DNA of 64,000 nucleotides from Spirochaetia bacterium (GCA_963675665.1 OY776510.1:2912001-2976000), one strand, 5' to 3'. Counted from the stretch's first letter, positions 23,532-57,530 are shown. Notes: generated by a model from the letters alone, not told the origin. Numbers and translations are program-made.

Positions 23532-24512
23532 ATGAAAGATGACGCAAAGAAAACAATAAGATCATTAAAAGAAATAAATAATTTTCCTTTTTATACAGCA
23601 ACATACTATGGGAATTACAGAATTGATGAATACATGCAGGGTGCTGTAGATTCTCCCGATGCGGTAATTCCTTTCTTTGAGGATTTGCTAAAAAATATAG
23701 GCGCCCCTTTTAAACTCTCTTTTCACCGTCCTCCTTCCGGGCAGCCCGGTTGCAGTGCTTTTTATTGCAAAACAGTTGCCGGTGATGCTGTAGTAGGCAA
23801 AAATCTTGATTGGATGCAGGCTCCTGTTCTTCTGCTGAGAACCAGGCCGGTTGGCGGATTAGAATCGCTTTCAATGGTAAACCTCAATTTTTGTGACTTT
23901 TTCAATACGGGATCTTTCAAGTATAAATTGCTGCTGTCGCCCTATGTGCCGCTTGACGGTATAAATAAAAGCGGTTTGGTTGTTTCGATGCTCTCGGTTG
24001 AAAAAGGAGCTGAATACCCGGTCAAGCCGGGCCGAATCATGGTTGGAGATTTTAATATTATCAGAATAATCCTGGATTCATGTAATGACGTTGGAGAAGC
24101 GGTGGATGTATTTAAGAAATACAATCTGATGATGACGGGAATGCTGTCGTTACATTACCTGATTGCCGATAAAAATAGATCATGTATTGTTGAATTTACA
24201 AACGGCGAAATGAATATTGAAGAAAACAAACAGGTCAACTATTTAACAAATTTCATTAAACTGAAGAATGATTCTCTTGAGACGGAAAAACGTAATTGTG
24301 ATCGTTATTGTAAAATTGAAAAAACATTAATTGAAAACAATAATCATCTGAATACCAGGCAGGCAGCAACATTATTAAAAGAAGTTTCAGTTTTTCAGCC
24401 GGAATATAAAATACCAAGTACGATCTGGTCCATTGTTTATGATATTAATTCGCTGAATATGAAAATACGAACAGGCTGTGAACCAAAACAATATTCTGTT
24501 AAACTAAGCTGA
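23532..24512 (+). CDS. Ntn-hydrolase (linear amide C-N hydrolase / choloylglycine hydrolase-like)
   Basis: Propeptide followed by GCSAF (Cys nucleophile), GKNLDW, DGINKSGL, HYLIAD and TNF. Confidence 0.8.
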   Translation: MKDDAKKTIRSLKEINNFPFYTATYYGNYRIDEYMQGAVDSPDAVIPFFEDLLKNIGAPFKLSFHRPPSGQPGCSAFYCKTVAGDAVVGKNLDWMQAPVLLLRTRPVGGLESLSMVNLNFCDFFNTGSFKYKLLLSPYVPLDGINKSGLVVSMLSVEKGAEYPVKPGRIMVGDFNIIRIILDSCNDVGEAVDVFKKYNLMMTGMLSLHYLIADKNRSCIVEFTNGEMNIEENKQVNYLTNFIKLKNDSLETEKRNCDRYCKIEKTLIENNNHLNTRQAATLLKEVSVFQPEYKIPSTIWSIVYDINSLNMKIRTGCEPKQYSVKLS

Positions 24513-24624
24513 GAAAGATTTCATTGATAGAATTTTAGATAAGCATTAGAATTAAAACTCAAAATGTCCTCTTGCCGAATATTTCTCTATTTTGTGCTTT
24601 AGCGGCAGGGACGGGGAGAAACAA

Positions 24625-26097
24625 ATGTTAAATTATTCCGGTTATGATGCGGTCGGGCTTTCAGAGCTTATAAGGAAGGGAGAAATCTCTGCCGTTGAAG
24701 CGACCGAGGCTGCGATCAGTAATATTCAAAGAATTAACCCGGTTTTGAATGCCGTAATATTCAAAGAGTATGAGAAGGCTGTTAAAACTGCCAGAATGCT
24801 TGACAAGTGGGATTCGCGGCTTGAAAAAAGCAGCTTATACGGTGTGCCTTTTCTGATTAAAAACCTGGTTGCTGATTGTAAGGGAATTCCTTTCAGCGAT
24901 GGATCTCGGGCAGTGCACGGCTTTGAATCCAGTGTTGATGCTGAGTTGATCAGAAGGCAGAAAGAAGCCGGTCTGATTGTTTTGGGCAGAAGTAATGCGT
25001 CGGAGTTCGGAGTTATGCCGACTACCGAGCCGGATATGTACGGACCAACTCTCAATCCGTGGAATACCGAATATACCGCGGGTGGTTCCAGCGGCGGTTC
25101 AGCGGCTGCTGTTGCGTCCGGAATGGTTCCGGTAGCCCATGGAAACGACGGTGGGGGATCGTTGCGGATACCGGCTTCCTGCTGCGGAATTTTCACTCTA
25201 AAACCTTCACGTGCACGCAACCCCCTGGGGCCTGTGTTCGGGGATCTTTCCGGAGGGATTGTATGTGAACATTGTCTTTCACGCAGCGTAAGGGATTCTG
25301 CCGCCATGCTTGATATCACCTCGGGACCGGAACCCGGAGATCCATATTGTGCTCCTGAATTCAGCGGATCATACCTGCAGGAAACCGGGAAAGATCCGGG
25401 GAAATTGAAAATCGGTATACTGTCAGAAGTTCCTGAAGGCTGGGGTAATGACGCCGGGCTGCACAGAGATTGTCTTGAAGCCGTAAATGATGCGGCAGGG
25501 CTATGCATGGAACTTGGGCATACTGTTGAGGAAATCAGATCCGCAGAATTGTCGTGGCCGGACCTTCCCAAAACATTTATAGATGTTTTCAGCTGTTTTG
25601 TCGGTCATGAGATTGAATACTGGCAGCGCCAGCTTAACAGGAAGATCTCCGAAAACGAACTTGAGCCTGCAACCTGGAACCTTTACCGGGCCGGAAAAGC
25701 CATCAGCGGCGCTGATTACCTCTCCGCATGGGAAAATCTTCAGCTTTTTACCCGGAAGACAGCACGCTGGTATATCGACGGCGAATGGGACTTGATTCTT
25801 TCGCCGGTGATGTGCGTACCGCCTCTGAAGACAGGTTCGTTTAAACCGGACCCTGATGCTCCCGACAAGTGGTTGGAAAATGCGCAGGCTTTTGTAGGTT
25901 TGACGCGTGTGCAGAACATAACCGGTCAGCCTGCCGTATCTGTTCCGCTGTTCTGGAATAACGACGGACTTCCGATAGGCGTTCAGTTTGCAGGCCGTTT
26001 TGGAAGTGAAGCTGGTCTTTTCAGGTTATCAGCACAGCTTGAAAAAGCCCGTCCGTGGTTTAAACGCACGCCGTCGGTTTTTGCTGAAGAGCAGTAG
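24625..26097 (+). CDS. Amidase-signature family enzyme
   Basis: GVPFLIKN, GGSSGGS and DGGGSLRIPAS (Ser-cisSer-Lys triad); ATG 24625 follows GGAG. Confidence 0.93.
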   Translation: MLNYSGYDAVGLSELIRKGEISAVEATEAAISNIQRINPVLNAVIFKEYEKAVKTARMLDKWDSRLEKSSLYGVPFLIKNLVADCKGIPFSDGSRAVHGFESSVDAELIRRQKEAGLIVLGRSNASEFGVMPTTEPDMYGPTLNPWNTEYTAGGSSGGSAAAVASGMVPVAHGNDGGGSLRIPASCCGIFTLKPSRARNPLGPVFGDLSGGIVCEHCLSRSVRDSAAMLDITSGPEPGDPYCAPEFSGSYLQETGKDPGKLKIGILSEVPEGWGNDAGLHRDCLEAVNDAAGLCMELGHTVEEIRSAELSWPDLPKTFIDVFSCFVGHEIEYWQRQLNRKISENELEPATWNLYRAGKAISGADYLSAWENLQLFTRKTARWYIDGEWDLILSPVMCVPPLKTGSFKPDPDAPDKWLENAQAFVGLTRVQNITGQPAVSVPLFWNNDGLPIGVQFAGRFGSEAGLFRLSAQLEKARPWFKRTPSVFAEEQ

Positions 26098-26112
26098 CAC
26101 AGGAAAGCTAAA

Positions 26113-26979
26113 ATGAACTATTTTCATATAGATGTATTTTCATCAAAACCATTGTCCGGAAACGGATTGACGGTTGTTTTTCCTGATAAAGAACTGGAAA
26201 GTGCGCATATGCAGGAAATAACCCGTGAGTTTAATCAGTTTGAAACTATATTTCTTTATCCCTTGAATGATAACAATTATAGAGCCAGAATATTTACTGT
26301 AGATGAAGAACTGAATTTTGCCGGACATCCTGTACTGGGAGCATCGGCAGCAATATTTAATATAAACGGTAAAAAGGATAAAGAACAGAATATAAATATT
26401 GTTGTGAATAATCGAACAATAGAAACAAAAGTAAAAATGGAAGGAAAAAATATTTTTGTTGAAATGAATCAGGGCAAACCTGAATTTATTTCAACCCTGA
26501 AAGCCGGGAATATTAAAGAGATAATATCAGCATTGAACCTGGATATCTTCGACATACATACGGAATATCCCGTAGAAGTTGTATCTACCGGGTTGCCGTA
26601 CCTGCTATTGCCTTTAAAAGATTTCAATATACTGGGGAAGGCTGAAATAATATCAGGTGATTTTGAAAAATTACTTGAAAAAACCGGAGCAAAATTTATT
26701 TATGTTTTTGAACCAGCTGAAATTGAGTGCAGAACCTGGGATAATACGGGGAGAGTAGAGGATGTTGCTACCGGAAGCGCAGCCGGACCGCTTGGCGCCT
26801 ACCTTGTAAAAAACGGGTTTAAATCTGTCAATGAAGAAATCGTAATAAGTCAGGGCCGCTTTGTTCACCGGCAAAGTCAAATATATTGCAGTGTAGACGG
26901 AGAAACAAACGAAGTGAGCATTAAAGGGCCGGTTGCTTTTTTTGCGCATGGTGCTGTTCTGCATGACTTTTTACCCTGA
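26113..26979 (+). CDS. PhzF-family isomerase/epimerase
   Basis: DVFS...GN, FET, ELNFAGHP and EDVATGSA motifs. Confidence 0.9.
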   Translation: MNYFHIDVFSSKPLSGNGLTVVFPDKELESAHMQEITREFNQFETIFLYPLNDNNYRARIFTVDEELNFAGHPVLGASAAIFNINGKKDKEQNINIVVNNRTIETKVKMEGKNIFVEMNQGKPEFISTLKAGNIKEIISALNLDIFDIHTEYPVEVVSTGLPYLLLPLKDFNILGKAEIISGDFEKLLEKTGAKFIYVFEPAEIECRTWDNTGRVEDVATGSAAGPLGAYLVKNGFKSVNEEIVISQGRFVHRQSQIYCSVDGETNEVSIKGPVAFFAHGAVLHDFLP

Positions 26980-35154: not shown

Positions 35155-35760
35155 TTAATGATACAGGGTCAGTAATTGGTTTATTTTTTCCGGAATACTT
35201 TCACGCGGGGGCCTGTCTTCGAGCCATGTTGTGAATAACCCGAATATATAACCTCTGATAGTATGAAGAATCTCAAATGAAGAAAATTTATCTGAAAGCT
35301 GACCTGTTTTCTGGGCCCTTTTAATAACATCCTCAAGGCTTTTGTTTGCATCGCGATAGGTATCCAGAAAATGATTAATGGCAACAGAATCTTCACGATA
35401 ATCTTCGTCAATTACCATCGGGAAAACCTGTGTAAGGATAATATGCAAAAGAGGCATATTATCATAATAAAATTCCGTAATCATTATTACCATTTGTTTC
35501 AGTACAGAAATAGGATTGGTTTCAATATCCTTGAATCGAATATTGTCCAGCGTAAAGTCATGATACTCCTGGTCAAGTATTGTATCGATGATTTCGGGAA
35601 TGCTTTTAAAATAATAGTAAAGACTGCTTTTGTCCATATCTATTGCGTCGGCAATCGATGCCAGTGTGACCTGTTTCCCGTATTTAACAAATAATTCTTT
35701 AGCAGCATCAAGAATTAGTGTTTTTTTCTGTTCCAGCCGTGATTTTTTTGATGCTTTCAT
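35155..35760 (-). CDS. TetR/AcrR-family transcriptional regulator
   Basis: ILDAAKELF...IADAIDMDKSSLYYYFKS HTH; divergent from the catabolic operon. Confidence 0.92.
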   Translation of the reverse strand: MKASKKSRLEQKKTLILDAAKELFVKYGKQVTLASIADAIDMDKSSLYYYFKSIPEIIDTILDQEYHDFTLDNIRFKDIETNPISVLKQMVIMITEFYYDNMPLLHIILTQVFPMVIDEDYREDSVAINHFLDTYRDANKSLEDVIKRAQKTGQLSDKFSSFEILHTIRGYIFGLFTTWLEDRPPRESIPEKINQLLTLYH

Positions 35761-35931
35761 AAACCTGTCCGTTTAAAAATCCTGTATTCAGTATATAGCA
35801 CTCATTTTAGTATGGCAAGGTTCTTGACAAACAAACTGGAATAAAATTCTGAATATATGAAAAAATAATATTTCCAAAAAATATTCAAGAAGAAAATTTA
35901 ATAATATTTCAAAAAAATTTTGAAAAAAACA

Positions 35932-35966
35932 TTGACATAACGAATATACAATGTAAAATGTTCGTA
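35932..35966 (+). promoter_or_regulatory. Sigma70-type promoter with an overlapping imperfect inverted repeat (candidate TetR operator)
   Basis: TTGACA (35932-37), 16 nt, TAAAAT (35954-59); ACGAAtAT...ATgTTCGT dyad overlaps it. Confidence 0.5.
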
Positions 35967-35990
35967 TAGAAGTTCATAAGAGGTGAAATT

Positions 35991-37352
35991 TTGAATAGTA
36001 AAGGGAAAAACATACCAAGAAGCTATAAAACTGCTATGCCCTGTGCTGTAAGTGCAGAAGGGATTTATATATATGATGATGATGGAAAACGTTATATAGA
36101 CGGATGCTGCGGAGCTTTAATTTCCAATATCGGCGAATGCGTACCGGAAGTGGTGGACGCAATAAGTGAGCAGCTTCGCACGCTGAATTTTGCTCATCCG
36201 TCAAGATGGCGGAATACTTCAACCGAAGGAGCTGCTGAAGAACTGGCGGAGCTTCTGCCTGATGATCTTAATAATGTCTGGTTTGTCAGCGGCGGAAGTG
36301 AAGCGAATGAATCAGCCGTCAAACTTGCCCGGCAATATTATACAGAACGGGACGGAAAGGGTTCTTCCAAAAATGAAATCATAGGTCGATGGAATTCCTA
36401 TCACGGCGCAACACTGGGATGTATGGCAATAGCCGGAAATATGTCGAGAAGAAGAACATTTGCCCAAATGTTTAAAGAGCATTCGAAAATTGAAACTCAT
36501 TATTGCTACCGATGCCCGTATGGTCTTGAATATCCGAAATGTAAAATAAAATGTGCATATGAGCTTGAGGATACCGTGAATCGTATTGGTGCAGAGTCGA
36601 TTGCAGCTTTTATTGCAGAGCCGATTGTCGGTTCAAGCATAGGGGCTTTAACTCCGCCTGATGAATACTGGCCTGTCGTACGTAAAATATGCAGCGATAA
36701 CGATATTTTGCTTATTGCCGATGAGGTTATGACCGGTATGGGTCGGACGGGTAAGGCTTTCTGTGTTGAGCACTGGAATGTCACTCCCGATATAATGACT
36801 TCGGCAAAGGGGCTTGCCGCAGGGTATATACCTGCAGGCGCGGTGTTCGCCCCGGATTATATAATGAACGTAATAAAGGCCGGCAGCGGAAGTTTTGCAA
36901 ACGGATATACATATAACGGCAATCCGGTTGCGTGTGCAGCGATATCGGCAGTAGCCAGGTATATAAAAAAGAACAGGCTTATAGAAAACGCAGCCCGTCA
37001 GGGGGAGATTCTTGCGAATGAACTGGTGAAGCTGAAAAGTCTGCCGATAGTCGGGGATATCCGTGGTCTGGGGTTGATGAGGGGCATTGAAATTGTTGCT
37101 GATGCTTCAACCAGGGAGCCTTTTCCAGCCGGGCTGCATGCTTCTTCCATGATTGCCCAGGAATGTATGAAAAGGGGACTTGTGATATATCCTTCGGGCG
37201 GTATGGTAAACGGAGGTACCCGGGGGGACAATTTCCTTATTGCTCCCGCCTTGATTGTAACGGAAGAACAAATCGTTGAAATTGTGGAAATACTGTATGA
37301 GAGCCTTAAGACGGTATCGGAGCGTTTGCTTGCCGGAAAAGCAGCAGTGTAA
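35991..37352 (+). CDS. Class III PLP aminotransferase (YodT-like)
   Basis: SGGSEANE, SYHGAT, FIAEP, DEVMTGMGRTG and SAKG motifs; TTG start after GAGGTG. Confidence 0.92.
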   Translation: MNSKGKNIPRSYKTAMPCAVSAEGIYIYDDDGKRYIDGCCGALISNIGECVPEVVDAISEQLRTLNFAHPSRWRNTSTEGAAEELAELLPDDLNNVWFVSGGSEANESAVKLARQYYTERDGKGSSKNEIIGRWNSYHGATLGCMAIAGNMSRRRTFAQMFKEHSKIETHYCYRCPYGLEYPKCKIKCAYELEDTVNRIGAESIAAFIAEPIVGSSIGALTPPDEYWPVVRKICSDNDILLIADEVMTGMGRTGKAFCVEHWNVTPDIMTSAKGLAAGYIPAGAVFAPDYIMNVIKAGSGSFANGYTYNGNPVACAAISAVARYIKKNRLIENAARQGEILANELVKLKSLPIVGDIRGLGLMRGIEIVADASTREPFPAGLHASSMIAQECMKRGLVIYPSGGMVNGGTRGDNFLIAPALIVTEEQIVEIVEILYESLKTVSERLLAGKAAV

Positions 37353-37392
37353 CATCCGGGGTATGAGCTTACTTGCAGAGGAGTTAATGTAA

Positions 37393-38082
37393 ATGGCAAA
37401 GAAAAGAATAAAACCGGTATTAACAGCAAAAGATGCGGTAAAGTGCATCTCCAGCGGTGCAACCATTATGGTCGGTGGTTTTAATTACGGAGGCATTCCC
37501 TATAGTCTGATTAAGGCGCTGGTAGAATCTGAAGTTAATGATCTCACTTTAATAAGCAATGACACAGCATATGAAGATGTTGGACAGGGATCGCTTGTTA
37601 AAAACGGCCAGGTTAAGAAGGTTATTGCTTCTCACATCGGCCTGAACAGGGCAACACAGAATTTATACAATGAGCATAAAATTGATCTGGAATTGATTCC
37701 CCAGGGAACTTTTGTAGAAAAAATACGGGCCGGCGGATTCGGGTTGGGCGGGTTTTTAACGCCGACGGGTATAGGAACTGAAGCTCAGAACGGAAAACAG
37801 CTTATTGATGTCGGAGGAAGAGAATATATTCTTGAACTTCCTATGGTCGCCGATGTTTCATTGATCCGCGCTTATAAAGCGGATCAGAACGGGAACCTTA
37901 TCTATTTTGGTACCAACCGGAATTTCAACCCGACAATGGCCACCGCCGGAAAGATTGTTATAGCAGAGGTTGATGATATTGTGGTTTCCGGTGAGATCAA
38001 TCCCAATGATGTTGTGACGCCCGGAATTCTGATCGATTATCTGGTCTTGAAGGAGGACACCTATTATGCTTCCCGTACTTGA
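37393..38082 (+). CDS. 3-oxoacid CoA-transferase subunit A
   Basis: MVGGF, PQGTFVEKIRAGG and RNFNP motifs. Confidence 0.93.
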   Translation: MAKKRIKPVLTAKDAVKCISSGATIMVGGFNYGGIPYSLIKALVESEVNDLTLISNDTAYEDVGQGSLVKNGQVKKVIASHIGLNRATQNLYNEHKIDLELIPQGTFVEKIRAGGFGLGGFLTPTGIGTEAQNGKQLIDVGGREYILELPMVADVSLIRAYKADQNGNLIYFGTNRNFNPTMATAGKIVIAEVDDIVVSGEINPNDVVTPGILIDYLVLKEDTYYASRT

Positions 38083-38746
38083 TGAAGAAAAAGTCCGAAA
38101 TAGAATTGCAAAGAGAATAGCGCTGGAATTTGATGACGGTGATGTTGTCAATCTGGGCATAGGTATTCCCACCCTTGTATCCGATTATATTCCAACCGGT
38201 ATTGAAGTAGTATTTCAAACGGAAAACGGCGTCGTCGGGGCCGGTCCGAAACCTGAAGTTGACGACTGGCGTTTTATCGGTGCCGGAGGCAGGTGTCTTA
38301 CACTGCTGCCCGGTTCGGCTCTGGTGTCAAGCGAAGTCAGTTTCGGTTTAATCAGGGGAGGGCACATTGATTACACAGTGCTGGGAGCTCTGCAGGTAGA
38401 TGAAAAGGCTAATCTGGCCAGCTGGTGGATTCCCGGAAAACTTATTCCCGGTATGGGCGGCTCAATGGATCTCGTAACCGGCGTAAAAAATGTAATTATC
38501 GCCACAAGCCATGTCAATAAAAAGGGAGAAGCAAAGATTGTTAAAGATTGCAGCTTCCCGCTTACGGGAGTCGGCGTGGTAAGCATGATCGTAACGGAAT
38601 ACGCTGTAATGAGATTTATCGAAAGCAAGCTGGTTTTGTCTGAACTTGCGCCCGGAGTTACCGTAGAAGATCTCCGTGGGAGTACAACTGCGGAATTCGA
38701 AATTGCTAAAGAAATAATAATCATGAAAGGATGCGAAGATGAGTGA
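38066..38746 (+). CDS. 3-oxoacid CoA-transferase subunit B
   Basis: VNLGIGIPT, catalytic QTENG and GMGGSMDL motifs. Confidence 0.93.
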   Translation: MLPVLDEEKVRNRIAKRIALEFDDGDVVNLGIGIPTLVSDYIPTGIEVVFQTENGVVGAGPKPEVDDWRFIGAGGRCLTLLPGSALVSSEVSFGLIRGGHIDYTVLGALQVDEKANLASWWIPGKLIPGMGGSMDLVTGVKNVIIATSHVNKKGEAKIVKDCSFPLTGVGVVSMIVTEYAVMRFIESKLVLSELAPGVTVEDLRGSTTAEFEIAKEIIIMKGCEDE

Positions 38747-39938
38747 GGCCGAAATAAAGGTGAAACCTGTAATTCTAAGCGCCTGCAGAACTCCCGGGGG
38801 AAAGTACGGAGGCACTCTGCAGAATGAAAAAGCTCCCGGGCTCGGCGCTCTGGTTTTAAAGGAAGCTCTGAAAAGGTCCGGTGTACCGGCGGAAAATATA
38901 TCCGAGATAGTAATGGGCAACGGCTGGCAGGCCGGTATAGGTGCCAATCCTGCAAGAATTGCAGGATGGAAAAGCGAAGTGCTTTCGGAAGTTCCGGCTG
39001 TCACTTTAAATAAGCGCTGCGGTTCCGGATTGCGATCTGTAATGCTGATAGCCGACCGTATCAGGCTTGGTGATATTAATGCAGGTATCGGCGGGGGGAT
39101 GGAAAGCGCCAGCAATGTGCCCTATATACTTCCTGAAGCAAGATGGGGGCACAGGATGGGCGATAAAACCACCCTGGATATTCTTCATAAGGACGGTTTT
39201 TTCTGTCCGTTATCAGAGATGATGATGGGCAATACAGCTGAAATACTTGCCGAAGAATACCATATCAGCAGAAGCGAACAGGATCTTTTTGCTTTGCGAA
39301 GTCACAGGAATGCCGTAGCGGCAATTGAGCAGGGCAAATTCCATAATGAAATCGTACCGGTTCATATAAAAAACAGAAAACAGGAATTTGATTTCGATAC
39401 AGACGAGATCCCCAGAAGCGATACTACGGAAGAAAAGCTTGCAAAACTGCCGACTATTTTTCAGGCCGACGGCACTGTTACCGCAGGAACAAGTTCGGCC
39501 CTGTGCGATGGAGCAAGCGCACTTGTCCTTGCGGCCCCTGATTGGGCGCAGGAAAGGGGACATAAACCAATGGCTGAAATCCTGGGTTATGCGTCTGCAA
39601 CGGTTCCTCCCGATCATATGGGTATAGGCCCGGTTGAAGCTGTTCCGAAAGCCTTGAAAATGGCAGGACTGAGCCTTGCCGATGTTGATCTGATTGAACT
39701 GAATGAAGCTTTTGCTGTTCAGGTATTGGCGGTTCAGCGGGAACTTTCATTTGATATGGATAAATGTAATATATACGGCGGCGCAATAGCCCTTGGACAC
39801 CCGATTGGCGCCACAGGAGCAAAAATACTGACAACTCTTACATATGCGCTTCAGAGTGAAGATAAGGAGATCGGTTTGGCAACTGCATGCATAGGAGGCG
39901 GTCAGGGTGTTGCCATGGTAATAAGAAGATTGAATTAA
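38739..39938 (+). CDS. Thiolase (acetyl-CoA C-acyltransferase)
   Basis: NKRCGSG, NEAF, GHPIGATG and CIGGGQG motifs. Confidence 0.95.
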   Translation: MSEAEIKVKPVILSACRTPGGKYGGTLQNEKAPGLGALVLKEALKRSGVPAENISEIVMGNGWQAGIGANPARIAGWKSEVLSEVPAVTLNKRCGSGLRSVMLIADRIRLGDINAGIGGGMESASNVPYILPEARWGHRMGDKTTLDILHKDGFFCPLSEMMMGNTAEILAEEYHISRSEQDLFALRSHRNAVAAIEQGKFHNEIVPVHIKNRKQEFDFDTDEIPRSDTTEEKLAKLPTIFQADGTVTAGTSSALCDGASALVLAAPDWAQERGHKPMAEILGYASATVPPDHMGIGPVEAVPKALKMAGLSLADVDLIELNEAFAVQVLAVQRELSFDMDKCNIYGGAIALGHPIGATGAKILTTLTYALQSEDKEIGLATACIGGGQGVAMVIRRLN

Positions 39939-40031
39939 ATATTTAGAAGCCTCCTTAAAGGTTGAAACATGAATTTGAGAATAGGCAGGCAGAAGAATCT
40001 AATATTTATATAAAAGCTACAGGAGGATTTT

Positions 40032-40844
40032 ATGGGGAGAAGCAGGAAATTCACGGTAGCCGCAGTCCAGATGAAATCGGAAATGAAAAATACCGAGCTT
40101 AATCTGGAGCGGGCCATCGAATTTGTAGTAGAAGCTGCAAAAAAAGGGGCAGATATAGTGTGTTTGCCTGAACTTTTTTACACAGGTTATCATCTTAATG
40201 CTCATGACTTGCAGGATATTGCGGAGCCGGTAGATGGTAATATGGTTAACCGATTACAAAAAGTTGCCAGTGATAATCGGGTATACATAATAGGCGGGTA
40301 TGCAGAGTCTGTAAAGATTCTGGGAAGAATGTATAACTCGGCTATTTTTATAAACGATAAAGGTGAAGTCGTCGGTAATATGAGAAAGGTATATTTGTGG
40401 GGCGAGGAACGGTTGAAATTTCGCGAAGGCGATAAATTTCCTGTTTTTGATACTCCGCTTGGGAAAATCGGAATAATGATTTGTTATGATGCTGAATTTC
40501 CTGAACCCATGAGAATAATGGCATTAAAAGGCGCTGAAATTGTGTTTGTACCATCCGTATGGAGCTTTAATGCCGAGAAAAGATGGCATGTCGATCTGGA
40601 GGGCGGGGCATTATATAACCTGTTCTACACAGTCGGAACAAACACCATCGGAGACGGCGCCTGCGGCAGCTCCAAAATAGTCTCTCCTTATGCAAAAACA
40701 TTAGCCCAGGCCGCAACGGATAAGGAAGAGATTATATATTCAGAGATTGATCTGGATAATGTTATTAAAGCACGTTCAGAAATACCTTACCTGAATGATT
40801 TTAAAGAAGACACTTTTAGCATGGATGCGCTAAAAACTTATTAA
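40032..40844 (+). CDS. Nitrilase-superfamily carbon-nitrogen hydrolase (amidase)
   Basis: Glu-Lys-Cys triad: LPEL, RKVYL, ICYDAEFPE. Confidence 0.92.
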   Translation: MGRSRKFTVAAVQMKSEMKNTELNLERAIEFVVEAAKKGADIVCLPELFYTGYHLNAHDLQDIAEPVDGNMVNRLQKVASDNRVYIIGGYAESVKILGRMYNSAIFINDKGEVVGNMRKVYLWGEERLKFREGDKFPVFDTPLGKIGIMICYDAEFPEPMRIMALKGAEIVFVPSVWSFNAEKRWHVDLEGGALYNLFYTVGTNTIGDGACGSSKIVSPYAKTLAQAATDKEEIIYSEIDLDNVIKARSEIPYLNDFKEDTFSMDALKTY

Positions 40845-40859
40845 AGAAGGAGTAAAGTA

Positions 40860-42128
40860 ATGTCGGAAACAACACTTACAAAAGATGCAAACACATCTTC
40901 AGCAAAGGCTTCTGAAAATTCGGTATACGAAGAAGGAGCCTTAAAAATCACCAGATTAACCAATAAGGAAGTACTGTTTACCATTATTGGTTGTGTAATC
41001 GGTTCGGGTTCACTTGGTACAGCATATGCTGCAAGATTAGCAGGCTGGCCAATTATAGCACTGTGGTTTGTAGTATCCGGTTTCTTGACTACATGTTCAA
41101 TGTTGTATGTAGCAGAAACAACTCTCAGAACAAAGAAATTTGTTCAGCTTCCGGGACTTGCGGAAAAGTATGTTGGAAAACCGGGAGCCGTTATAATCTT
41201 CCTGGCTGTTCTGGTCAATGCTCTCGGTTGTCTGATTGCATATTTTAACGGAAGCGGAGCTATAATTTCCCAGATGATTGGCGTGCCCAGATGGGTATCA
41301 ATGCTTATCTTTTTAATCCCGGCTGCAGGTGTTTCCTGGTTCGGTCTGAAGGCTACAGGAATCGGAGCAAAAGTACTTAGTTTCGGGATGATTATAATTC
41401 TCACTATTTTATGTATAGCAACATTTTTCTCCTCGAAGGTTGATTTCAGCAATGTAGTATTTGTAAACTGGAAATACGCAATTCCGCTTTTTAACGTAGC
41501 TGCATTCAGTTATATAGGACAATATCTGGTTCCGGATTTGGCCAGGGGTATGTCTCATAACCCGAGAGCTCTTGCTCCGGCAATTGTAAAAGGTATGATT
41601 ATCTCAGGTGTATTGCTGATATGTATACCATTCAGTGTTCTTCTGGTAAACGATCCTGCTGAAGTAACACAGGTCGCAACTCTCTCATGGGGAGAAGCAC
41701 TTGGATTATGGGCTTTCTTTATCGGTAATATTTATGCCCTTATAGCCATGCTTACATCCTACTGGGCAATAAAGACTACAATAGTAACCAATATCGTTGA
41801 TGTCTTTAAATTCCGGTCTGAATGGGATATTAAAACCAGATTGTCAATAACAGCTGTTGTAACAGCTATCCCGTTATTTCTTGCTATAACCGGTCTCGTC
41901 GGATTTGTAAATGCAATTTATGCTGCAGGCACTTTCGGCGGTATTGTAATGGCTATAATTCCTGTAATGATGCTCAGAAAATCAAGGAAGATTGGAGAAG
42001 TGGAACCTTCCTGGACCTGCAGCTGGTATTCTCATTCTTTCTTCCAGGGATTGCTGATTGTAGTTTATTCTCTTGCATTCATCTATGCAGTATTAAGCCT
42101 GTTCGGATTGTTGCCGGCCGGTTGGTAG
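40860..42128 (+). CDS. Amino acid permease (HAAAP / Trp-Tyr permease family)
   Basis: IGCVIGSGSL, AETTLRT and about 11 TM helices. Confidence 0.85.
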   Translation: MSETTLTKDANTSSAKASENSVYEEGALKITRLTNKEVLFTIIGCVIGSGSLGTAYAARLAGWPIIALWFVVSGFLTTCSMLYVAETTLRTKKFVQLPGLAEKYVGKPGAVIIFLAVLVNALGCLIAYFNGSGAIISQMIGVPRWVSMLIFLIPAAGVSWFGLKATGIGAKVLSFGMIIILTILCIATFFSSKVDFSNVVFVNWKYAIPLFNVAAFSYIGQYLVPDLARGMSHNPRALAPAIVKGMIISGVLLICIPFSVLLVNDPAEVTQVATLSWGEALGLWAFFIGNIYALIAMLTSYWAIKTTIVTNIVDVFKFRSEWDIKTRLSITAVVTAIPLFLAITGLVGFVNAIYAAGTFGGIVMAIIPVMMLRKSRKIGEVEPSWTCSWYSHSFFQGLLIVVYSLAFIYAVLSLFGLLPAGW

Positions 42129-42184: not shown

Positions 42185-42211
42185 AAACCTCTGCCGGAAG
42201 GCAGGGGTTTT
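42185..42211. terminator. Intrinsic terminator between convergent genes
   Basis: AAACCTCTGCC-GGAA-GGCAGGGGTTTT hairpin. Confidence 0.75.
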
Positions 42212-42280: not shown

Positions 42281-43408
42281 CTACCGGGAAAGCTTTTTTA
42301 CAAAACACCGCCTTCTTTTATGCTGACGATGTTCGTAGTGTCTCCATATATCCTGAACAGCTTTATTGTTTTCAAGTTCTCCGGAGGTTTCACAGCTTTT
42401 AATTCCGTTTCTGATTGCAGCCTTGTTTACTTCGGTCAGCATCAGCGCAATTATTCCCCGGCCCGAATATTCTTTTTTTACACCGATAAGATAAAGATCC
42501 AGCTTTTCAGGGTGTTTGAACGCATGCAGAATATGAAATATCCCAAACGGAAATAATCTGCCCCGGGCTTTTTGCAGCGCTTTTGTAAGCGACGGAAATG
42601 CAATTCCTGCAGCAATGACATTGTCGTTCTCATCCAGAACAAACTTCGTATAATCTGGAACAATGAAGCCGAAATACTGTTTGGTATAAAAATCTTTCTG
42701 TTTCTGTGTCAGAGGAACCGTGCCGAATAATTTTTCATAAGCCTCGTCAATTATTTCCCAGAAACCGGGAATATATGGTTTGAAATCCCCGGATTTTTTT
42801 GCATCAAGCAGCCTGATTCCGGAACGTTTGCAGATTAGATCATTAACATGAATTACTTTTTCAGGAATTTCATCGGGGACTTTGACCTCGAATTCAAGCC
42901 AGTCAACTTCCTTGCTGTAACCCAGTTTTTCCAGATGTACAGGATAATAGGAATAATTATATATCATGGGGTATGTGCCCTGCTCGTCAAATCCTTCAAC
43001 AAGCATGCCTTCTTCATCCAGGTCGGTAAAGCCCATCGGGCCTTCTATAGCCTCCATACCGTTTTCTGCGGACCATTTCTCTACGGCTGAAAAAAGCGCT
43101 GCTGAAACTTCTTCATCATCTATGAAGTCGAGCCAGCCGAATCTGGCTTTCTTTTCTCCCCATTTATTTACCAGTGCGTCATTGAGTATTCCGCCAATTC
43201 TTCCGGCAATCATGTCGTTTTTGAATGCAAGCCAGTATTTCGACCTGCAGTGTTCAAATGCAGGATTAATTTCAGAATTGAGGGTTTTCAGCTCATCCCT
43301 TATAAACGGAGGCGCCCAGTATTTGTTGTTTTTATAAAGCCGGAAAGGAAACTTTACAAACTGCCTGAGCTCCGATTTGGTTTTTACTTCTTTAATGATC
43401 ACGCTCAT
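42281..43408 (-). CDS. YghO-like GNAT-fold protein
   Basis: FVKFPFRLY, GRIGG, RFGWLDFIDD, GMLVEGF and YNYSYY motifs. Confidence 0.8.
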   Translation of the reverse strand: MSVIIKEVKTKSELRQFVKFPFRLYKNNKYWAPPFIRDELKTLNSEINPAFEHCRSKYWLAFKNDMIAGRIGGILNDALVNKWGEKKARFGWLDFIDDEEVSAALFSAVEKWSAENGMEAIEGPMGFTDLDEEGMLVEGFDEQGTYPMIYNYSYYPVHLEKLGYSKEVDWLEFEVKVPDEIPEKVIHVNDLICKRSGIRLLDAKKSGDFKPYIPGFWEIIDEAYEKLFGTVPLTQKQKDFYTKQYFGFIVPDYTKFVLDENDNVIAAGIAFPSLTKALQKARGRLFPFGIFHILHAFKHPEKLDLYLIGVKKEYSGRGIIALMLTEVNKAAIRNGIKSCETSGELENNKAVQDIWRHYEHRQHKRRRCFVKKLSR

Positions 43409-48943: not shown

Positions 48944-50578
48944 ATGTTGACAGTTAGTGATATTACCCTTTCATTCGGAGAAAGGGTTCTCTTTAAAGAG
49001 GTAAATATTAAGTTCCTTCCGGGGAACTGTTATGGTGTAATTGGAGCAAACGGAGCCGGAAAATCTACATTTCTCAAGGTTTTATCGGGTGATCTTGAAG
49101 CGGACAAGGGAGAAGTAATAATTACTCCCGGCGAACGGATGGCTGTTCTGCAGCAGGACCAGTTTGCATTTGATGATTATTCGGTAATGCACACCGTTAT
49201 TATGGGGCATAAAAATCTCTATGAAATAATGATTGAAAAAGATGCCATATATGAGAAAGCCGATTTCAGTGAAGAAGACGGAATCAGGGCGGCGGAACTT
49301 GAAGGCGAATTTGCGGAAATGAACGGCTGGGAGGCGGAAAGCGAAGCTGCAACCCTGCTGAGCCAGCTTGGTATAAGCGAAGACCTGCATTATAAGCAGA
49401 TGGAGGAAATTGAACCGGCGCTCAAGGTTCGAATCCTTCTCGCTCAGGCTTTGTTCGGGAACCCGGACATTCTTTTGCTTGATGAGCCTACAAATAACCT
49501 CGATCTTGAATCAATTTCATGGCTCGAGGAATTCCTGTATAAATTTGATAATACAGTTATCGTAGTATCTCATGACCGGCATTTTCTTAACAAGGTTTGT
49601 ACGCATATTGCAGATGTTGATTTCGGAAAAATAAAGCTCTTTGTCGGAAATTACGATTTCTGGTATATGGCAAGCCAGCTGGCTCTCAAACAGATGAAGG
49701 ATGAGAAAAGACGCCGTGAAGACAAGGTTGCCGAACTGAAGGAATTTATCCAGCGGTTCAGTTCCAATGCGTCCAAGGCCAAACAGGCCACAAGCCGAAA
49801 AAAACTGATTGAAAAGCTTACTATAGACGACATCAAACCTTCATCGAGAAAATTCCCCTACGTCGATTTCAAGCCGGACAGGGACCCGGGTAATAATATC
49901 CTGACGATTGAGGGACTCAATAAAGAAGTTGACGGCGAACAGGTGATTAAGGACCTTTCCATCACTGTAAATAAGGGCGACAAGATTGCATTTGTCGGTC
50001 CTATGCACGCCTCCAAGACTGCATTGTATGATATCCTGTCGGGAATTATCGAACCGGACTCCGGCAGTTTCGAATGGGGAGTGACAATAAAAAACGGTTA
50101 CTTTCCAAAAGACAATACAACTTTCTTTGAGAACGAGATGACCATAGTAGAATGGCTGCAGCAGTATACTGAGGTGGAAGAAGAGTCTTTTGTAAGGGGT
50201 TTTCTCGGCAGAATGCTTTTCAGCGGTGAGGAAGCCCTTAAAAAAGTAAAGGTGCTGTCCGGAGGCGAGAAGGTAAGGTGCATGCTTTCAAAGCTTATGC
50301 TTGAAGGGGCGAATGCGCTTATATTCGACGAGCCTACAAACCATCTTGATCTTGAATCCATAACCGCCCTGAACAACGGTCTGATCAAATACCCCGGGGT
50401 GCTGCTTTTTAATTCGCATGACCACCAGTTTGTGCATACGGTTGCAAACCGCATAATAGAGTTTGCCCCGGACGGGATAATAGACCGGATGATGCCTTTT
50501 GACGATTACCTTGTCAATGAAGATGTGAAAACTCTCAGAGATGAACTGTGGCACGGACACCACGGGCTTTCAATCTGA
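48944..50578 (+). CDS. ABC-F family ATPase (YbiT/YkpA-like)
   Basis: Two NBDs, no TM domain, LLDEPTNNLD, SHDRHF and linker QATSR motifs. Confidence 0.93.
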   Translation: MLTVSDITLSFGERVLFKEVNIKFLPGNCYGVIGANGAGKSTFLKVLSGDLEADKGEVIITPGERMAVLQQDQFAFDDYSVMHTVIMGHKNLYEIMIEKDAIYEKADFSEEDGIRAAELEGEFAEMNGWEAESEAATLLSQLGISEDLHYKQMEEIEPALKVRILLAQALFGNPDILLLDEPTNNLDLESISWLEEFLYKFDNTVIVVSHDRHFLNKVCTHIADVDFGKIKLFVGNYDFWYMASQLALKQMKDEKRRREDKVAELKEFIQRFSSNASKAKQATSRKKLIEKLTIDDIKPSSRKFPYVDFKPDRDPGNNILTIEGLNKEVDGEQVIKDLSITVNKGDKIAFVGPMHASKTALYDILSGIIEPDSGSFEWGVTIKNGYFPKDNTTFFENEMTIVEWLQQYTEVEEESFVRGFLGRMLFSGEEALKKVKVLSGGEKVRCMLSKLMLEGANALIFDEPTNHLDLESITALNNGLIKYPGVLLFNSHDHQFVHTVANRIIEFAPDGIIDRMMPFDDYLVNEDVKTLRDELWHGHHGLSI

Positions 50579-53919: not shown

Positions 53920-54813
53920 ATGTCAGGTTTCAAAGAAGAATTCAATATCAAGGAAATAACGGAAGAACTGTGCAAATCTGAATCTTACAGCAAGGTTTAC
54001 CTCAGATCCAGCGAGCACGATATTCATATGCCGTCAATTGATGAACTTGCAAAAGCGGTTGAACTGCTGCGGTCGGTCATATTTCCCGGTTACTTCATCC
54101 ATTCGGAACTGCGCGAAGATACAATGCATTATTACATAGGGAGCAGTCTTGATAAATGTTTTGCAATACTTTCAGAGCAGTTGAAACGGGGATACTGTTT
54201 TGCGTGCTCTTCAGAGACGGTATGCAATTTCTGTGAAACCAGGGCTGAAGAAGCCGCAGCGCATCTGCTGAAACGACTTCCGTATATCAGACACATGCTG
54301 TCGACAGATGCCGAAGCCGCTTATGAGGGTGATCCTGCGGCAAAAAGTATAGGAGAGGCTATTTTCTGTTATCCAAGCATACGGGCCCTGACGAACCACC
54401 GAATTGCGCACGAACTTTATCGCTTCGGTGTTCCAATAATACCAAGGCTAATCAGCGAAATGGCTCATTCCGAAGCAGGAATTGATATTCATCCCGGGGC
54501 GGAAATCGACGAGCATTTTTTCATAGATCACGGTACAGGCACCGTAATAGGTGAAACTTCTGTTATCGGAAAAAATGTTCAGATTTACCAGGGCGTAACA
54601 CTCGGTGCGCGAAGTTTTCCCAAGGATGAAGACGGCAAACCAATCAAGGATATCCCGCGACACCCAATAGTAAAAGACGGCGTTATCATATATGCCGGAG
54701 CTACTGTGCTCGGTCGCGTAACTATCGGTGAAAATGCTATGATTGGCGGTAATGTCTGGATAACGCGCGATGTCCCTGCCGGCGAGAGGGTTATTCAGCG
54801 GCGGGCGGACTAA
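53920..54813 (+). CDS. cysE: Serine O-acetyltransferase (EpsC-type)
   Basis: GDPAA, IDIHPGA, IDHGTG, YQGVTLG and RHP motifs. Confidence 0.92.
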   Translation: MSGFKEEFNIKEITEELCKSESYSKVYLRSSEHDIHMPSIDELAKAVELLRSVIFPGYFIHSELREDTMHYYIGSSLDKCFAILSEQLKRGYCFACSSETVCNFCETRAEEAAAHLLKRLPYIRHMLSTDAEAAYEGDPAAKSIGEAIFCYPSIRALTNHRIAHELYRFGVPIIPRLISEMAHSEAGIDIHPGAEIDEHFFIDHGTGTVIGETSVIGKNVQIYQGVTLGARSFPKDEDGKPIKDIPRHPIVKDGVIIYAGATVLGRVTIGENAMIGGNVWITRDVPAGERVIQRRAD

Positions 54814-55972
54814 CACCGACATCAGCTGCGGCTGAATATAATGCATCAAAAAAGAACTGAAACTCATGTTCGGTGATTATCAGCGGGGGATCGATCCGCA
54901 GAAATGAGCCCCTGTACCCGGTAAGAAATCCCTGATCAACAAGCTGTAAATATATCTTTTTTGTCAGCCCGGGATTGATAAACTCAATTGCATACATCAA
55001 CCCCCTGCCGCGGACCTGAGCAACAGCGTCAAGTTCCTCAAGACCTTCAAGTTTTTCCAGGAACAGCCTGCCGTTGATCTCTGCTTTTTCAATCAGGCAG
55101 TTTTCATTTATCACCCTGATTACCTCGCGCGCAACGGCGGCGCCCAGCGGATCATTCTGATGTGACTGGGCATATTTAAACGGACGACCCTCAAGTTCCA
55201 TGGTTATTCCGGCATTTAAGGCTGCAACACTGACGGGATAACCGTTGCCGATACCTTTCCCGATGGCAATCATGTCAGGTTCTATATCATAATGATTGTA
55301 TCCGAACCATTTGCCGGTTCTGCCTATTCCGGTAGTAACCTCGTTGACGATGATTTTTCCGCCGTTTTTTCTGACTTTGTCCGAAATGGTTTTAATTAAT
55401 GCTTTCGGGGGAAACCTGACAAAACCCGATGAACTTCCGGGTTCAAAAATAAAGTCTGAAATTCCGTCAGGGATATCACTGATTAAAGGACAATCTGCGC
55501 TGCATACATCAGCATTAACGCAATTTACACAGCCGGCCCAGTCAAAACAGTACCAGCCGGACTCTCTTCTTCCGACCGAAGAAAAGGCTCCGAGGTATGA
55601 ATCTTTCATTGTCATTGAAAGCGGTTTTCCGGTAAGATGGCGGGCAATCTGTCTTGATATCTCTATTGCTTCGCTTCCTGAGCACAGGAACACGGCTTTA
55701 CCGTCCGGCATCCCCGTCTTCTCCAGTACCGTTTCAGCGGCTTCCTCGACAATCCGGGTTGAATAACAAAAGCCGGCCTGTACAAGTGAACCGAGCTGGT
55801 TAATTATGGTTTGATTAATCTCTTTCCGCTGATGTCCGAGAGACATGCACCAGACTCCGGATTCAAGATCCATATAGTAATTGCCGGCCCGGTTTTTAAT
55901 GTATAGTCCGTTTCCTTCTGTTATGTCGGGTAAAAGAAGTTCATGCCCGCTGCAGTTAAAAACGTGTTTCAT
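54791..55972 (-). CDS. Class III aminotransferase-fold PLP enzyme (NEV variant)
   Basis: SGSEA, FEPG, NEVTTGIGRTG and GKGIGNG motifs; ATG overlaps the MocR stop codon (ATGA). Confidence 0.85.
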   Translation of the reverse strand: MKHVFNCSGHELLLPDITEGNGLYIKNRAGNYYMDLESGVWCMSLGHQRKEINQTIINQLGSLVQAGFCYSTRIVEEAAETVLEKTGMPDGKAVFLCSGSEAIEISRQIARHLTGKPLSMTMKDSYLGAFSSVGRRESGWYCFDWAGCVNCVNADVCSADCPLISDIPDGISDFIFEPGSSSGFVRFPPKALIKTISDKVRKNGGKIIVNEVTTGIGRTGKWFGYNHYDIEPDMIAIGKGIGNGYPVSVAALNAGITMELEGRPFKYAQSHQNDPLGAAVAREVIRVINENCLIEKAEINGRLFLEKLEGLEELDAVAQVRGRGLMYAIEFINPGLTKKIYLQLVDQGFLTGYRGSFLRIDPPLIITEHEFQFFFDALYSAAADVGVSPPAAE

Positions 55973-57438: not shown

Positions 57439-57530
57439 TCTTCTCTCCTGATACTCAAAATAGCAGCAGAGCGGATGATTGGCAACAGCCAAATATTGTC
57501 TGAATTGAACAGACCAATTACCATAACCGC

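Follow-up and report, generated by a model that had tools for sequence, protein, structure and literature searches.

In E. coli, acetoacetate and short-chain acids are handled by atoDAEB, in which a two-subunit family I CoA-transferase is followed by a thiolase of the acetoacetyl-CoA type. In B. subtilis, the cluster that we take to be composed of kamA-yodP-yodQ-yodR-yodS-yodT (function untested) combines a class III aminotransferase with a two-subunit CoA-transferase. The L-beta-lysine pathway of Pseudomonas B4, to whose steps (EC 2.6.1.65 and the later ones) we know of no assigned genes, proceeds by beta-transamination, CoA transfer and thiolysis, with an acetylation and a deacetylase-thiolesterase acting on 4-acetamidobutyryl-CoA. 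In the Kat variant of lysine fermentation, as described in PMC3149608, a beta-transaminase of anaerobic-digester bacteria is coupled with a thiolase; this HemL-like enzyme takes the CoA ester as substrate, and its gene adjoins kamA/kamDE/kdd/kce.

The locus compared here with these systems lies at 35155..42128 of a 64,000-nucleotide stretch of Spirochaetia DNA, called the window. A divergent TetR gene stands opposite co-oriented genes for a class III aminotransferase (AT), CoA-transferase A and B, a thiolase, a CN-hydrolase and a HAAAP-type permease (Table 1), and Pfam and TIGR scores bear out this gene set as the first-pass annotation had listed it. Sequence comparison makes it rather probable that this is a TetR-repressed operon catabolising an imported beta-amino compound. 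On our best reading it would handle a small beta-amino acid, with an amidase and permease front end specific to the window.

Table 1. Features of the locus, with positions counted from the first nucleotide of the window
Feature	Position	Strand	Remarks
TetR-family regulator	35155..35760	-	PF00440 36.5 bits; divergent from operon
Divergent control region	35761..35990		promoter-like pair and tandem repeat with palindrome
Class III (omega-type) aminotransferase (AT)	35991..37352	+	PF00202 318.3 bits; proposed beta-amino acid:2-oxoacid transaminase
Family I 3-oxoacid/acetate CoA-transferase, subunit A	37393..38082	+	PF01144; TIGR02429 224.9>=128.5
Family I CoA-transferase, subunit B (catalytic Glu)	38066..38746	+	PF01144; TIGR02428 283.1>=243.55
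Thiolase (acetyl-CoA C-acyltransferase)	38739..39938	+	TIGR01930 441.2>=240.55
CN-hydrolase superfamily amidase	40032..40844	+	PF00795 191.1 bits; accessory, lineage-specific
HAAAP-family (Trp_Tyr_perm) amino-acid permease	40860..42128	+	PF03222 91 bits
Hairpin, probable terminator	42185..42210	+	-18.5 kcal/mol, z = -5.27

In the proposed pathway the permease would take up the substrate, and the CN-hydrolase would strip an amide or N-substituent before or after transamination. The AT would remove the amino group from C3, with pyruvate or 2-oxoglutarate as acceptor, and yield a free 3-oxoacid, from which the AtoDA-like CoA-transferase would form the 3-oxoacyl-CoA, to be cleaved by the thiolase to acetyl-CoA and a second acyl-CoA. 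The three steps from AT to thiolase form the conserved module, and the first two a lineage-specific front end that replaces the TAXI-TRAP importer found in relatives.

The AT passes the PF00202 gathering cutoff (30.5). Its PLP-binding lysine, K273, and D244, the aspartate that binds the pyridine nitrogen, are invariant in alignment A1. The closest PDB sequence match is 3i4j (1.4e-79), and the AF2 model (pLDDT 87.5) has amine/omega-transaminases as top fold matches (TM about 0.85). No characterised beta-amino acid transaminase was found near the AT, the closest structures being generic omega-transaminases at 27-33% identity. For AT, CoA-transferase B, thiolase and CN-hydrolase the catalytic-residue motifs were defined by PROSITE-type patterns.

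With scores above the cutoffs and the catalytic E53 of subunit B lying within QTENG ((S)ENG motif), both CoA-transferase subunits belong to the family I 3-oxoacid CoA-transferases (PcaIJ/ScoAB/AtoDA). The best PDB matches of subunit A are 3-oxoacid CoA-transferase A 9cq2 (4.5e-66) and E. coli AtoD 5dbn/1k6d (1e-65); on the AtoD equivalog NF007394 it remains below cutoff (263.3<315). The thiolase carries the Cys-His-Cys residues C94/H353/C384 and matches best the clostridial and E. coli acetoacetyl-CoA thiolases (4wyr, 6e-118; 5f38), while no cutoff was reached for the equivalogs PhaA, BktB, PcaF and FadA. As judged by sequence, both enzymes are closest to those of the acetoacetate (AtoD/AtoB) type. 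AtoD and AtoB are among their nearest solved relatives; the operon differs from atoDAEB in the AT in front, TetR, CN-hydrolase and HAAAP permease, and has neither AtoE nor AtoSC regulation. Acetoacetate, or a compound yielding it, is the likeliest 3-oxo product, and the source would be 3-aminobutyrate, or beta-glutamate via 3-oxoglutarate.

How far is this gene set conserved? We searched 80 related loci, mostly of Synergistota and Spirochaetota, by tblastn (E<=1e-5, at least 50% coverage). Of these, 48 have both CoA-transferase genes and the thiolase gene next to the AT; among the 45 loci with at least 7 kb of downstream sequence, 37 do. Strand is shared and order unchanged. The full trio is absent from the long loci L003, L005, L014, L036, L056, L072, L075 and L078, and a paralogous order, Thl-CoAT-AT, occurs in L024, L054, L062 and L073. 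The usual neighbours of the core are a TAXI-TRAP importer and an RpiR regulator. On this evidence of gene neighbourhood, AT, CoA-transferase A/B and thiolase make up a module that is conserved among anaerobes fermenting amino acids. Conservation as a unit holds for these genes and fails for the CN-hydrolase and permease, neither of which was found by tblastn in any of the 80 loci.

Locus L001 has the order TetR-AT-CoAT_A-CoAT_B-Thl-[TAXI, DUF1850, DctQM]-ABC-F. The window repeats this frame, but with [CN-hydrolase, permease, ...] before the ABC-F gene (68% identity). The permease (PF03222, cutoff 22; subfamily TIGR00837 82.5<350) occupies the slot of the relatives' importer, and this arrangement marks CN-hydrolase and permease as a lineage-specific front end. 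The CN-hydrolase (PF00795 cutoff 23.2) has its Glu-Lys-Cys triad E47/K118/C151, so that the catalytic motifs of AT, CoA-transferase B, thiolase and hydrolase are all intact, as first annotated. Its nearest PDB matches are P. abyssi nitrilase 3ivz, PH0642 and mouse Nit2, and it stays below the equivalog cutoffs of nitrile_Arch (161.6<500), AguB (132.4<410) and de_GSH_amidase (110.5<355). Relatives at 60-69% identity carry names of amino-acid-fermenting Clostridia. In the known pair of glutamine transaminase and omega-amidase (Nit2), a transaminase is likewise combined with such a CN-hydrolase, which could deamidate an oxo-acid monoamide; however, that transaminase comes from a different fold-type family, and the window hydrolase falls below every NCBIfam equivalog cutoff.

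The importers and variant loci of the relatives give clues to the substrate. A TAXI binding protein with a fused TRAP permease was found in 47 of the 56 loci having at least 4.5 kb downstream. TRAP systems are uptake systems, so their position beside the core points to a catabolic role. In three Desulfobulbales-type loci (L072, L075, L076) a beta-keto-acid cleavage enzyme (BKACE) replaces CoA-transferase and thiolase; its nearest NCBIfam model is Kce (337.9<382), and L072 and L075 also have a 3-hydroxybutyrate dehydrogenase (353.1>=340). BKACE enzymes take free beta-keto acids plus acetyl-CoA, and the replacement therefore favours release of a free 3-oxoacid by the AT. The general chemistry proposed at first (beta-amine to 3-oxoacid, CoA transfer, thiolysis) agrees with this replacement and with the conserved core. 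If the product were acetoacetate, BKACE would be futile; hence either the ATs of these loci (50-53% identity) differ in substrate, or 3-aminobutyrate is not what all the loci have in common.

The TAXI proteins of the AT loci are homologous to glutamate-binding TAXIs (8s4j, 3.8e-50; 1us4, 4e-47). According to PMC11574862, VcGluP is glutamate-specific and binds the alpha-amino group by defined residues. At these contacts, as given there, 42 AT-linked TAXI proteins have Q93->M (39/42), E125->A (39/42) and H123->Y (42/42), conserved substitutions that seem to point to one ligand across clusters. That ligand could be beta-glutamate, which the AT would convert to 3-oxoglutarate; CoA activation and thiolysis would then give acetyl-CoA and malonyl-CoA, or decarboxylation would give acetoacetate for the Ato-like steps. 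At the window, the permease would import neutral beta-glutamine, and the omega-amidase-like hydrolase would deamidate it or 3-oxoglutaramate. We consider this route unlikely, albeit with several points in its favour. The alteration of glutamate-type TAXIs falls exactly at the alpha-amino contacts, and BKACE is not futile with 3-oxoglutarate. Dicarboxylates are hinted at by a MatC-like carrier (L011, L014), by a family III CoA-transferase nearest succinyl-CoA:mesaconate and succinate-glutarate enzymes (L003-L005) and by a succinyl-CoA synthetase (L005). Beta-glutamine would explain an amidase solely where a neutral amino-acid permease replaces the carboxylate importer, and Nit2 omega-amidase is among the hydrolase's nearest solved relatives. 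Beta-glutamate and beta-glutamine are both methanogen osmolytes (PMC1224877). All this is circumstantial, however: a gene handling malonyl-CoA is conserved in none of the loci, the top BKACE model is Kce rather than a 3-oxoglutarate enzyme, HAAAP permeases for beta-glutamine are not known, and a literature search on beta-glutamate catabolism turned up nothing for comparison. For our preferred reading, a small beta-amino acid, the imported form at the window may be the amide beta-glutamine.

The locus might also contain no single pathway, with an ato-like module for acetoacetate or short-chain acids beside an amine transaminase of other role and the CN-hydrolase and permease as an independent amide-uptake pair. 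Every part comes from a generic family, the core recurs without the hydrolase and permease, and a 47%-identical hydrolase of Fusobacterium vincentii is solitary, flanked by genes for malic enzyme and DAHP synthase. The intergenic gaps from AT to permease (40, -17, -8, 93 and 15 nt) are compatible with a single transcript; the 93-nt gap before the hydrolase could conceal a promoter, so that hydrolase and permease possibly form a separate unit. Yet no terminator-like site was found between thiolase and hydrolase, the association of the AT with CoA-transferase and thiolase is met again in different phyla and survives rearrangements, among them the paralogous order Thl-CoAT-AT, and the AT is linked to BKACE as well, which makes such a chance assembly decidedly improbable.

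Slightly less credible still is a CoA-first order, in which the CoA-transferase would form a beta-aminoacyl-CoA, the AT a 3-oxoacyl-CoA, and the thiolase would cleave it. Its precedent is a 3-aminobutyryl-CoA:2-oxoglutarate aminotransferase co-localised with a thiolase (PMC3149608). Against it, the BKACE variants require a free 3-oxoacid, and the 25 best NCBIfam models for the AT are all of omega-transaminase or BioA type and include none for HemL, whereas Kat, compared by description, is HemL-like. Kat's neighbours kamA/kamDE/kdd were not found among the scanned ORFs of the window or the scanned neighbours at the 80 loci, with Kce-like BKACE in L072, L075 and L076 alone.

The operon had first been called yodTSR-like and assigned to scavenging of N-epsilon-acetyl-beta-lysine: uptake, transamination to 6-acetamido-3-oxohexanoate, CoA transfer, thiolysis to acetyl-CoA and 4-acetamidobutyryl-CoA, and deacetylation by the CN-hydrolase. 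YodT is presumably a member of NCBIfam PRK06917, and the Bacillales PRK06917 clade served as its stand-in in tree and identity comparison. The likeness to YodT extends to the broad radiation that includes this family and goes no further. The AT scores below the PRK06917 cutoff (478.6 against 535; in a scan of 75 proteins P0124 alone passed, with 689.7), is 41% identical to a genuine member and differs from the family in its specificity loop (FAHPSRWR vs YRSQFTS). In the tree the window orthologues form a clade (SH-aLRT 99) apart from that of Bacillales (SH-aLRT 99), contrary to the grouping first expected. Unlike kamA-yodPQRST, the operon adds a thiolase, CN-hydrolase and permease, and has no AblB/YodP-type gene.

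No lysine 2,3-aminomutase (kamA) or M20 deacetylase was found among the 56 window ORFs of at least 150 aa, and no lysine aminomutase among the scanned neighbours of the 80 loci (19, 65 and 38 proteins). The absence of kamA thus stands; that of an acetyltransferase does not, since a 375-aa GNAT-type gene (42281-43408), the only GNAT of the window scan, lies convergent directly downstream, with homologues in 0/80 loci. The gene set ablA/kamA plus ablB/yodP with a yodQ-type deacetylase was recognised neither at the window nor at the 80 loci. An M20 peptidase occurs near the core at L036, L037 and L045 only; with no regular deacetylase there, 4-acetamidobutyryl-CoA would have no onward route inside the relatives' loci, and nothing in the conserved module corresponds to the acetylation and deacetylase-thiolesterase of Pseudomonas B4. 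The CN-hydrolases nearest to that of the window are primary-amide or nitrile enzymes, and to our knowledge N-deacetylation is not typical of the branch with the Pyrococcus nitrilase and Nit2. The reaction order does equal that of Pseudomonas B4, the relatives come largely from anaerobic consortia, N-acetyl-beta-lysine is a widespread methanogen osmolyte (PMC1224877), and YodT and the AT share the nearest structure 3I4J (for YodT, PMC6522883); with a hydrolase found in 0/80 related loci, an AT of another clade and an acetoacetate-type CoA-transferase and thiolase, this substrate is nonetheless very improbable. As substrates, 3-aminobutyrate and beta-glutamate/beta-glutamine are more plausible.

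The gene for TetR, the proposed repressor, is divergent, as first noted, and lies on the minus strand. TetR stays below every NCBIfam equivalog cutoff; homologues hold the equivalent divergent position in L001 (68% identity), L002 and L010 (48%). A 36-nt tandem repeat (35864-35935) contains the palindrome TTTCAAAA-N3-TTTTGAAA (35907-35925), a candidate TetR operator, and similar A/T-rich AAATTT-type repeats lie directly 5' of TTGACA in L001, L002 and L010. The promoter-like pair TTGACA (35932-35937) and TAAAAT (35954-35959) upstream of the AT matches at 11/12 positions; as the scan gave 29 promoter-like sites where shuffled sequences gave 26.0 +/- 5.8, the match by itself is no proof. The AT starts with TTG, preceded by AGAGGTG. 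The terminator first annotated agrees with the stable hairpin after the permease gene, which has a short U run, is equalled in stability by 0/200 shuffles, probably ends the operon and may also serve the GNAT gene that converges on it.

The first-pass annotation's list of genes for the operon was borne out by the ORF listing and family scans (see table). We regard the observation as real and the operon as a credible, uncharacterised catabolic unit, all of whose proteins come from well-known families. The gaps between successive genes from the aminotransferase (AT) to the permease are 40, -17, -8, 93, and 15 nt, the catalytic residues (by PROSITE-type motif definitions) are present in the operon enzymes, and a strong hairpin lies 3′ of the permease. 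A TTGACA/TAAAAT pair stands upstream of AT; promoter-like matches are no commoner in the scanned sequence than in shuffles (29 vs 26.0 ± 5.8). The control region also has a tandem repeat of 36-nt units in which a perfect 8+8 palindrome is embedded. The convergent GNAT-type gene directly downstream of the operon had been missed. Its Atlas family consists of widespread N-acetyltransferases of about 375 aa without known role, and as an AblB-like partner it was rejected, being generic, convergent, and absent from all 80 related loci described below. Pfam scans of 56 ORFs of at least 150 aa detected neither lysine aminomutase nor any other lysine-pathway gene in the window.

Features of the operon and of other amine- or amide-related genes in the window
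Feature	Position	Strand	Basis or remark
Choloylglycine-hydrolase/AAT-like, amidase-signature (PF01425), and PhzF-like run	23532-26979	+	another uncharacterised amide-processing cluster
TetR gene	35155-35760	-	divergent from the plus-strand run
Class III aminotransferase (AT)	35991-37352	+	ORF listing and family scans
CoA-transferase subunit A	37393-38082	+	ORF listing and family scans
CoA-transferase subunit B	38066-38746	+	ORF listing and family scans
Thiolase	38739-39938	+	ORF listing and family scans
CN-hydrolase	40032-40844	+	ORF listing and family scans
Trp_Tyr_perm/HAAAP permease	40860-42128	+	ORF listing and family scans
GNAT-type protein, 375 aa	42281-43408	-	weak C-terminal GNAT domain, PF00583, 23.2 bits
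ABC-F gene	48944-50578		68% identity to its counterpart in locus L001
MocR/PdxR-like GntR-aminotransferase fusion regulator and ArgD-like second class III aminotransferase	54791-57492	-	NF052282, 331.7 ≥ 320 (regulator)
Second CN-hydrolase	59938-60774	+	deaminated-glutathione amidases are its closest NCBIfam models; none reaches its cutoff

How much of this arrangement is shared with other genomes? Species-representative genomes scanned with an alignment of 38 close AT relatives (A1) gave 226 matched stretches, 214 of which encode relatives; the best 80 of these 214 were kept as loci L001-L080. Conservation was counted by tblastn with the window proteins (E ≤ 1e-5, at least 50% coverage), and neighbouring ORFs were clustered and matched to Pfam and NCBIfam models to establish gene order. 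Of the best 80 loci, 48 have the trio of CoA-transferase A, CoA-transferase B, and thiolase beside AT; among the 45 that extend 7 kb or more downstream of AT, the figure is 37. The other eight of these long loci are diverse: L003 and L005 have thiolase with a family III CoA-transferase, L014 has CoA-transferase and no thiolase, L036 and L056 have TRAP alone, L072 and L075 have a beta-keto-acid cleavage enzyme (BKACE) instead, and L078 has none of the trio, TRAP, or BKACE. Conservation holds for the core and fails for CN-hydrolase and permease, each of which, like the GNAT gene, was found in none of these best 80 loci even at 30% coverage.

The window AT is closest to a relative in one other genome (98% identity) and next to one in a Spirochaetales MAG (70%); a long series at 53-68% follows, and those with names are mostly from Synergistota. 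There the usual order is RpiR regulator, AT, TAXI binding protein, fused TRAP permease, CoA-transferase A, CoA-transferase B, and thiolase. TAXI and permease are present in 47 of 56 loci with at least 4.5 kb downstream, and RpiR in 62 of 71 with at least 1.2 kb upstream; TetR occurs in only three of the latter (L001, L002, and L010), all spirochaetes. Scans of further neighbour proteins (n = 65 and n = 38) detected no lysine aminomutase and no GNAT, and M20 peptidases only at L036, L037, and L045. In several Synergistaceae (L035, L043, L048, L059, and L068) a gene for a 1418-aa BcrAD/BadFG-type CoA-enzyme activase fusion (PF01869 plus DUF2229) and a cupin gene adjoin RpiR-AT on the upstream side of AT.

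L001, a spirochaete locus and the nearest relative of the window, has the order TetR, AT, CoA-transferase A, CoA-transferase B, thiolase, TAXI, DUF1850, DctQM, ABC-F. This frame recurs in the window, where its genes are 68-79% identical; the interval from thiolase to ABC-F is there occupied by CN-hydrolase, permease, and unrelated genes spanning about 7 kb. In L002 an ABC-transporter ATPase directly follows thiolase. These differences indicate that the transporter slot is variable and that, in this lineage specifically, hydrolase and permease as a pair replace the TRAP importer; the window thus shows a module re-plumbed by exchange of uptake and pre-processing genes alone. Base composition (GC 0.41 in hydrolase and permease vs 0.44-0.49 in the core; GC3 0.35-0.39 vs 0.41-0.43) was dropped as a sign of acquisition, because the difference is too small to argue from. 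Going by their names, which are only generic, the relatives of the hydrolase at 60-69% identity come from amino-acid-fermenting Clostridia, and its best match in the plasmid collection, a Fusobacterium vincentii record (47% identity), lies in an uninformative housekeeping context. The second CN-hydrolase of the window was rejected as a paralogue (28% identity, different subfamily) and is probably a housekeeping Nit-type enzyme.

Because TRAP systems serve uptake, the module should be catabolic. Its CoA-transferase is nearest to AtoD and 3-oxoacid CoA-transferases, and its thiolase to acetoacetyl-CoA thiolases. In L072, L075, and L076, from Desulfobulbales-type MAGs, the AT and RpiR genes adjoin BKACE without CoA-transferase or thiolase, and L072 and L075 also have 3-hydroxybutyrate dehydrogenase. 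Since BKACE enzymes use a free beta-keto acid and acetyl-CoA, two alternative routes of 3-oxoacid processing lie beside orthologous ATs. The BKACE loci are the best evidence here that AT would make a free 3-oxoacid from a beta-amino acid, which argues against a CoA-ester transaminase like 3-aminobutyryl-CoA aminotransferase (Kat). The Ato system and Kat offer precedents for the reaction logic of the module, as reportedly does the Barker beta-lysine pathway. Import and breakdown of a beta-amino compound is on balance probably the right general pathway, and to this extent the logic of the first-pass annotation survives. Kat-type identity of AT was also rejected on family grounds, Kat being described as HemL-like in PMC3149608.

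The operon had been called yodTSR-like after Bacillus subtilis. In the tree of ATs (70 rows, quick IQ-TREE, LG+G4, no bootstrap), as in the other comparisons, YodT is represented by a stand-in, the Bacillales family PRK06917, of which we take YodT to be a member. This family is the best NCBIfam model for the window AT, below cutoff (478.6 < 535), and PRK07483 follows closely, likewise below its cutoff (461.8 < 485). When representatives clustered at 50% identity were searched exhaustively, the best match had 45% identity. The sole true PRK06917 member among 75 proteins scanned, P0124 (score 689.7), shares 41% identity with the window AT; the relatives of P0124 bear Bacillales names, none of them YodT. 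The tree separates a clade of the window AT and ten orthologues from a clade of ten Bacillales PRK06917 proteins (SH-aLRT 99 each); both hang from an unresolved radiation, and their loop motifs differ. A 41% match to the window AT on a Bacillus mycoides plasmid lies beside acyl-CoA dehydrogenase and MFS genes, with no yod-like cluster. The nearest structure to the window AT is 3I4J, as it is for YodT (39%) according to the review PMC6522883. It is a fair statement from these comparisons that the two would belong to the same broad subfamily but to different orthologous groups, and the yodTSR label holds only at the former level.

The loop at AT residues 69-75 (FAHPSRWRN) is specific to the clade, with an invariant R72 and either R or K at 74; Bacillales PRK06917 proteins have YRSQFTS in its place, and the loop may determine preference for an anionic substrate. 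The motif CxxC...CxxxC (C172/C175/C184/C188; residues 172-188, window about 36504-36554) is invariant among orthologues, and 3I4J lacks it. The cysteines may form a structural metal site; the motif was discarded as a special feature because it is widespread in the transaminase radiation, including outgroup omega-transaminases.

If AT acts on a beta-amino acid, which one? The simplest candidate is 3-aminobutyrate, whose transamination would give acetoacetate, converted by Ato-like steps to two acetyl-CoA; however, the BKACE variants would then be futile, and the amidase is left without explanation. Beta-glutamate or beta-glutamine is a tentative choice to which we give a rather low probability. 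Beta-glutamate fits more of the side evidence, all of it circumstantial. The AT-linked TAXI proteins are homologues of glutamate-binding TAXIs, and across 42 of them conserved changes stand exactly at the residues with which VcGluP, a glutamate-specific TAXI binding protein (PMC11574862), holds the alpha-amino group: Q93 to M (39/42), E125 to A (39/42), H123 to Y (42/42), and M201 to N (41/42). Variant loci have dicarboxylate-type parts: L011 and L014 a MatC-like carrier, and L003-L005 a family III CoA-transferase whose closest relatives are mesaconate and glutarate enzymes, with succinyl-CoA synthetase in addition in L005. If the window's substrate were the amide, beta-glutamine, it would make sense that a permease for neutral amino acids and an omega-amidase-like enzyme stand in place of the carboxylate importer. 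The complete scheme, in which AT, TAXI-TRAP, CoA-transferase A/B, and thiolase (BKACE in some lineages) would be a hitherto unassigned bacterial beta-glutamate route re-tooled in this spirochaete for beta-glutamine through the permease and hydrolase, is still less likely. The weakest candidate, and a quite improbable one, is the originally named N-epsilon-acetyl-beta-lysine: the conserved module has nothing to handle 4-acetamidobutyryl-CoA, and the sole candidate deacetylase, the CN-hydrolase, is confined to the window and has nearest relatives that presumably act on nitriles or primary amides. PMC1224877 lists beta-glutamate, beta-glutamine, and N-acetyl-beta-lysine as methanogen osmolytes.

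Our literature search retrieved no description of this cluster and no paper naming at least three of yodT, yodS, yodR, and kamA; publications on acetyl-beta-lysine, 3-aminobutyrate, beta-lysine, BKACE-aminotransferase, and beta-glutamate likewise yielded nothing on it. The beta-amino acids 3-aminobutyrate, beta-glutamate, beta-glutamine, and N-acetyl-beta-lysine are made in anoxic habitats, and few genes for breaking them down have, to our knowledge, been assigned. Dozens of genomes of Synergistota and Spirochaetota carry the compact module, which consists of one transaminase, one binding protein, and one CoA-transferase/thiolase pair, so that a few assays could assign the substrate. Were the beta-glutamate/beta-glutamine scheme right, catabolism of these two compounds would have its first genes, and a trophic link would join methanogens, which release the osmolyte, to Synergistota or Spirochaetota; with plain 3-aminobutyrate the gain would be one of routine annotation.

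Paralogous clusters with the order thiolase, CoA-transferase A/B, AT are present at L024, L048, L054, L062, and L073, their proteins having 39-49% identity to those of the window; L062 and L073 have two ATs each, followed by a classical DctPQM TRAP. Two such clusters occur in one genome in the pairs L007/L024 and L002/L004. This pattern suggests a module family whose members would serve different beta-amino acids. The genome of the window probably also has a second AT cluster, with the 63% identical paralogue P0008, and the regulator-aminotransferase pair on its minus strand may belong to a separate regulated amine pathway.
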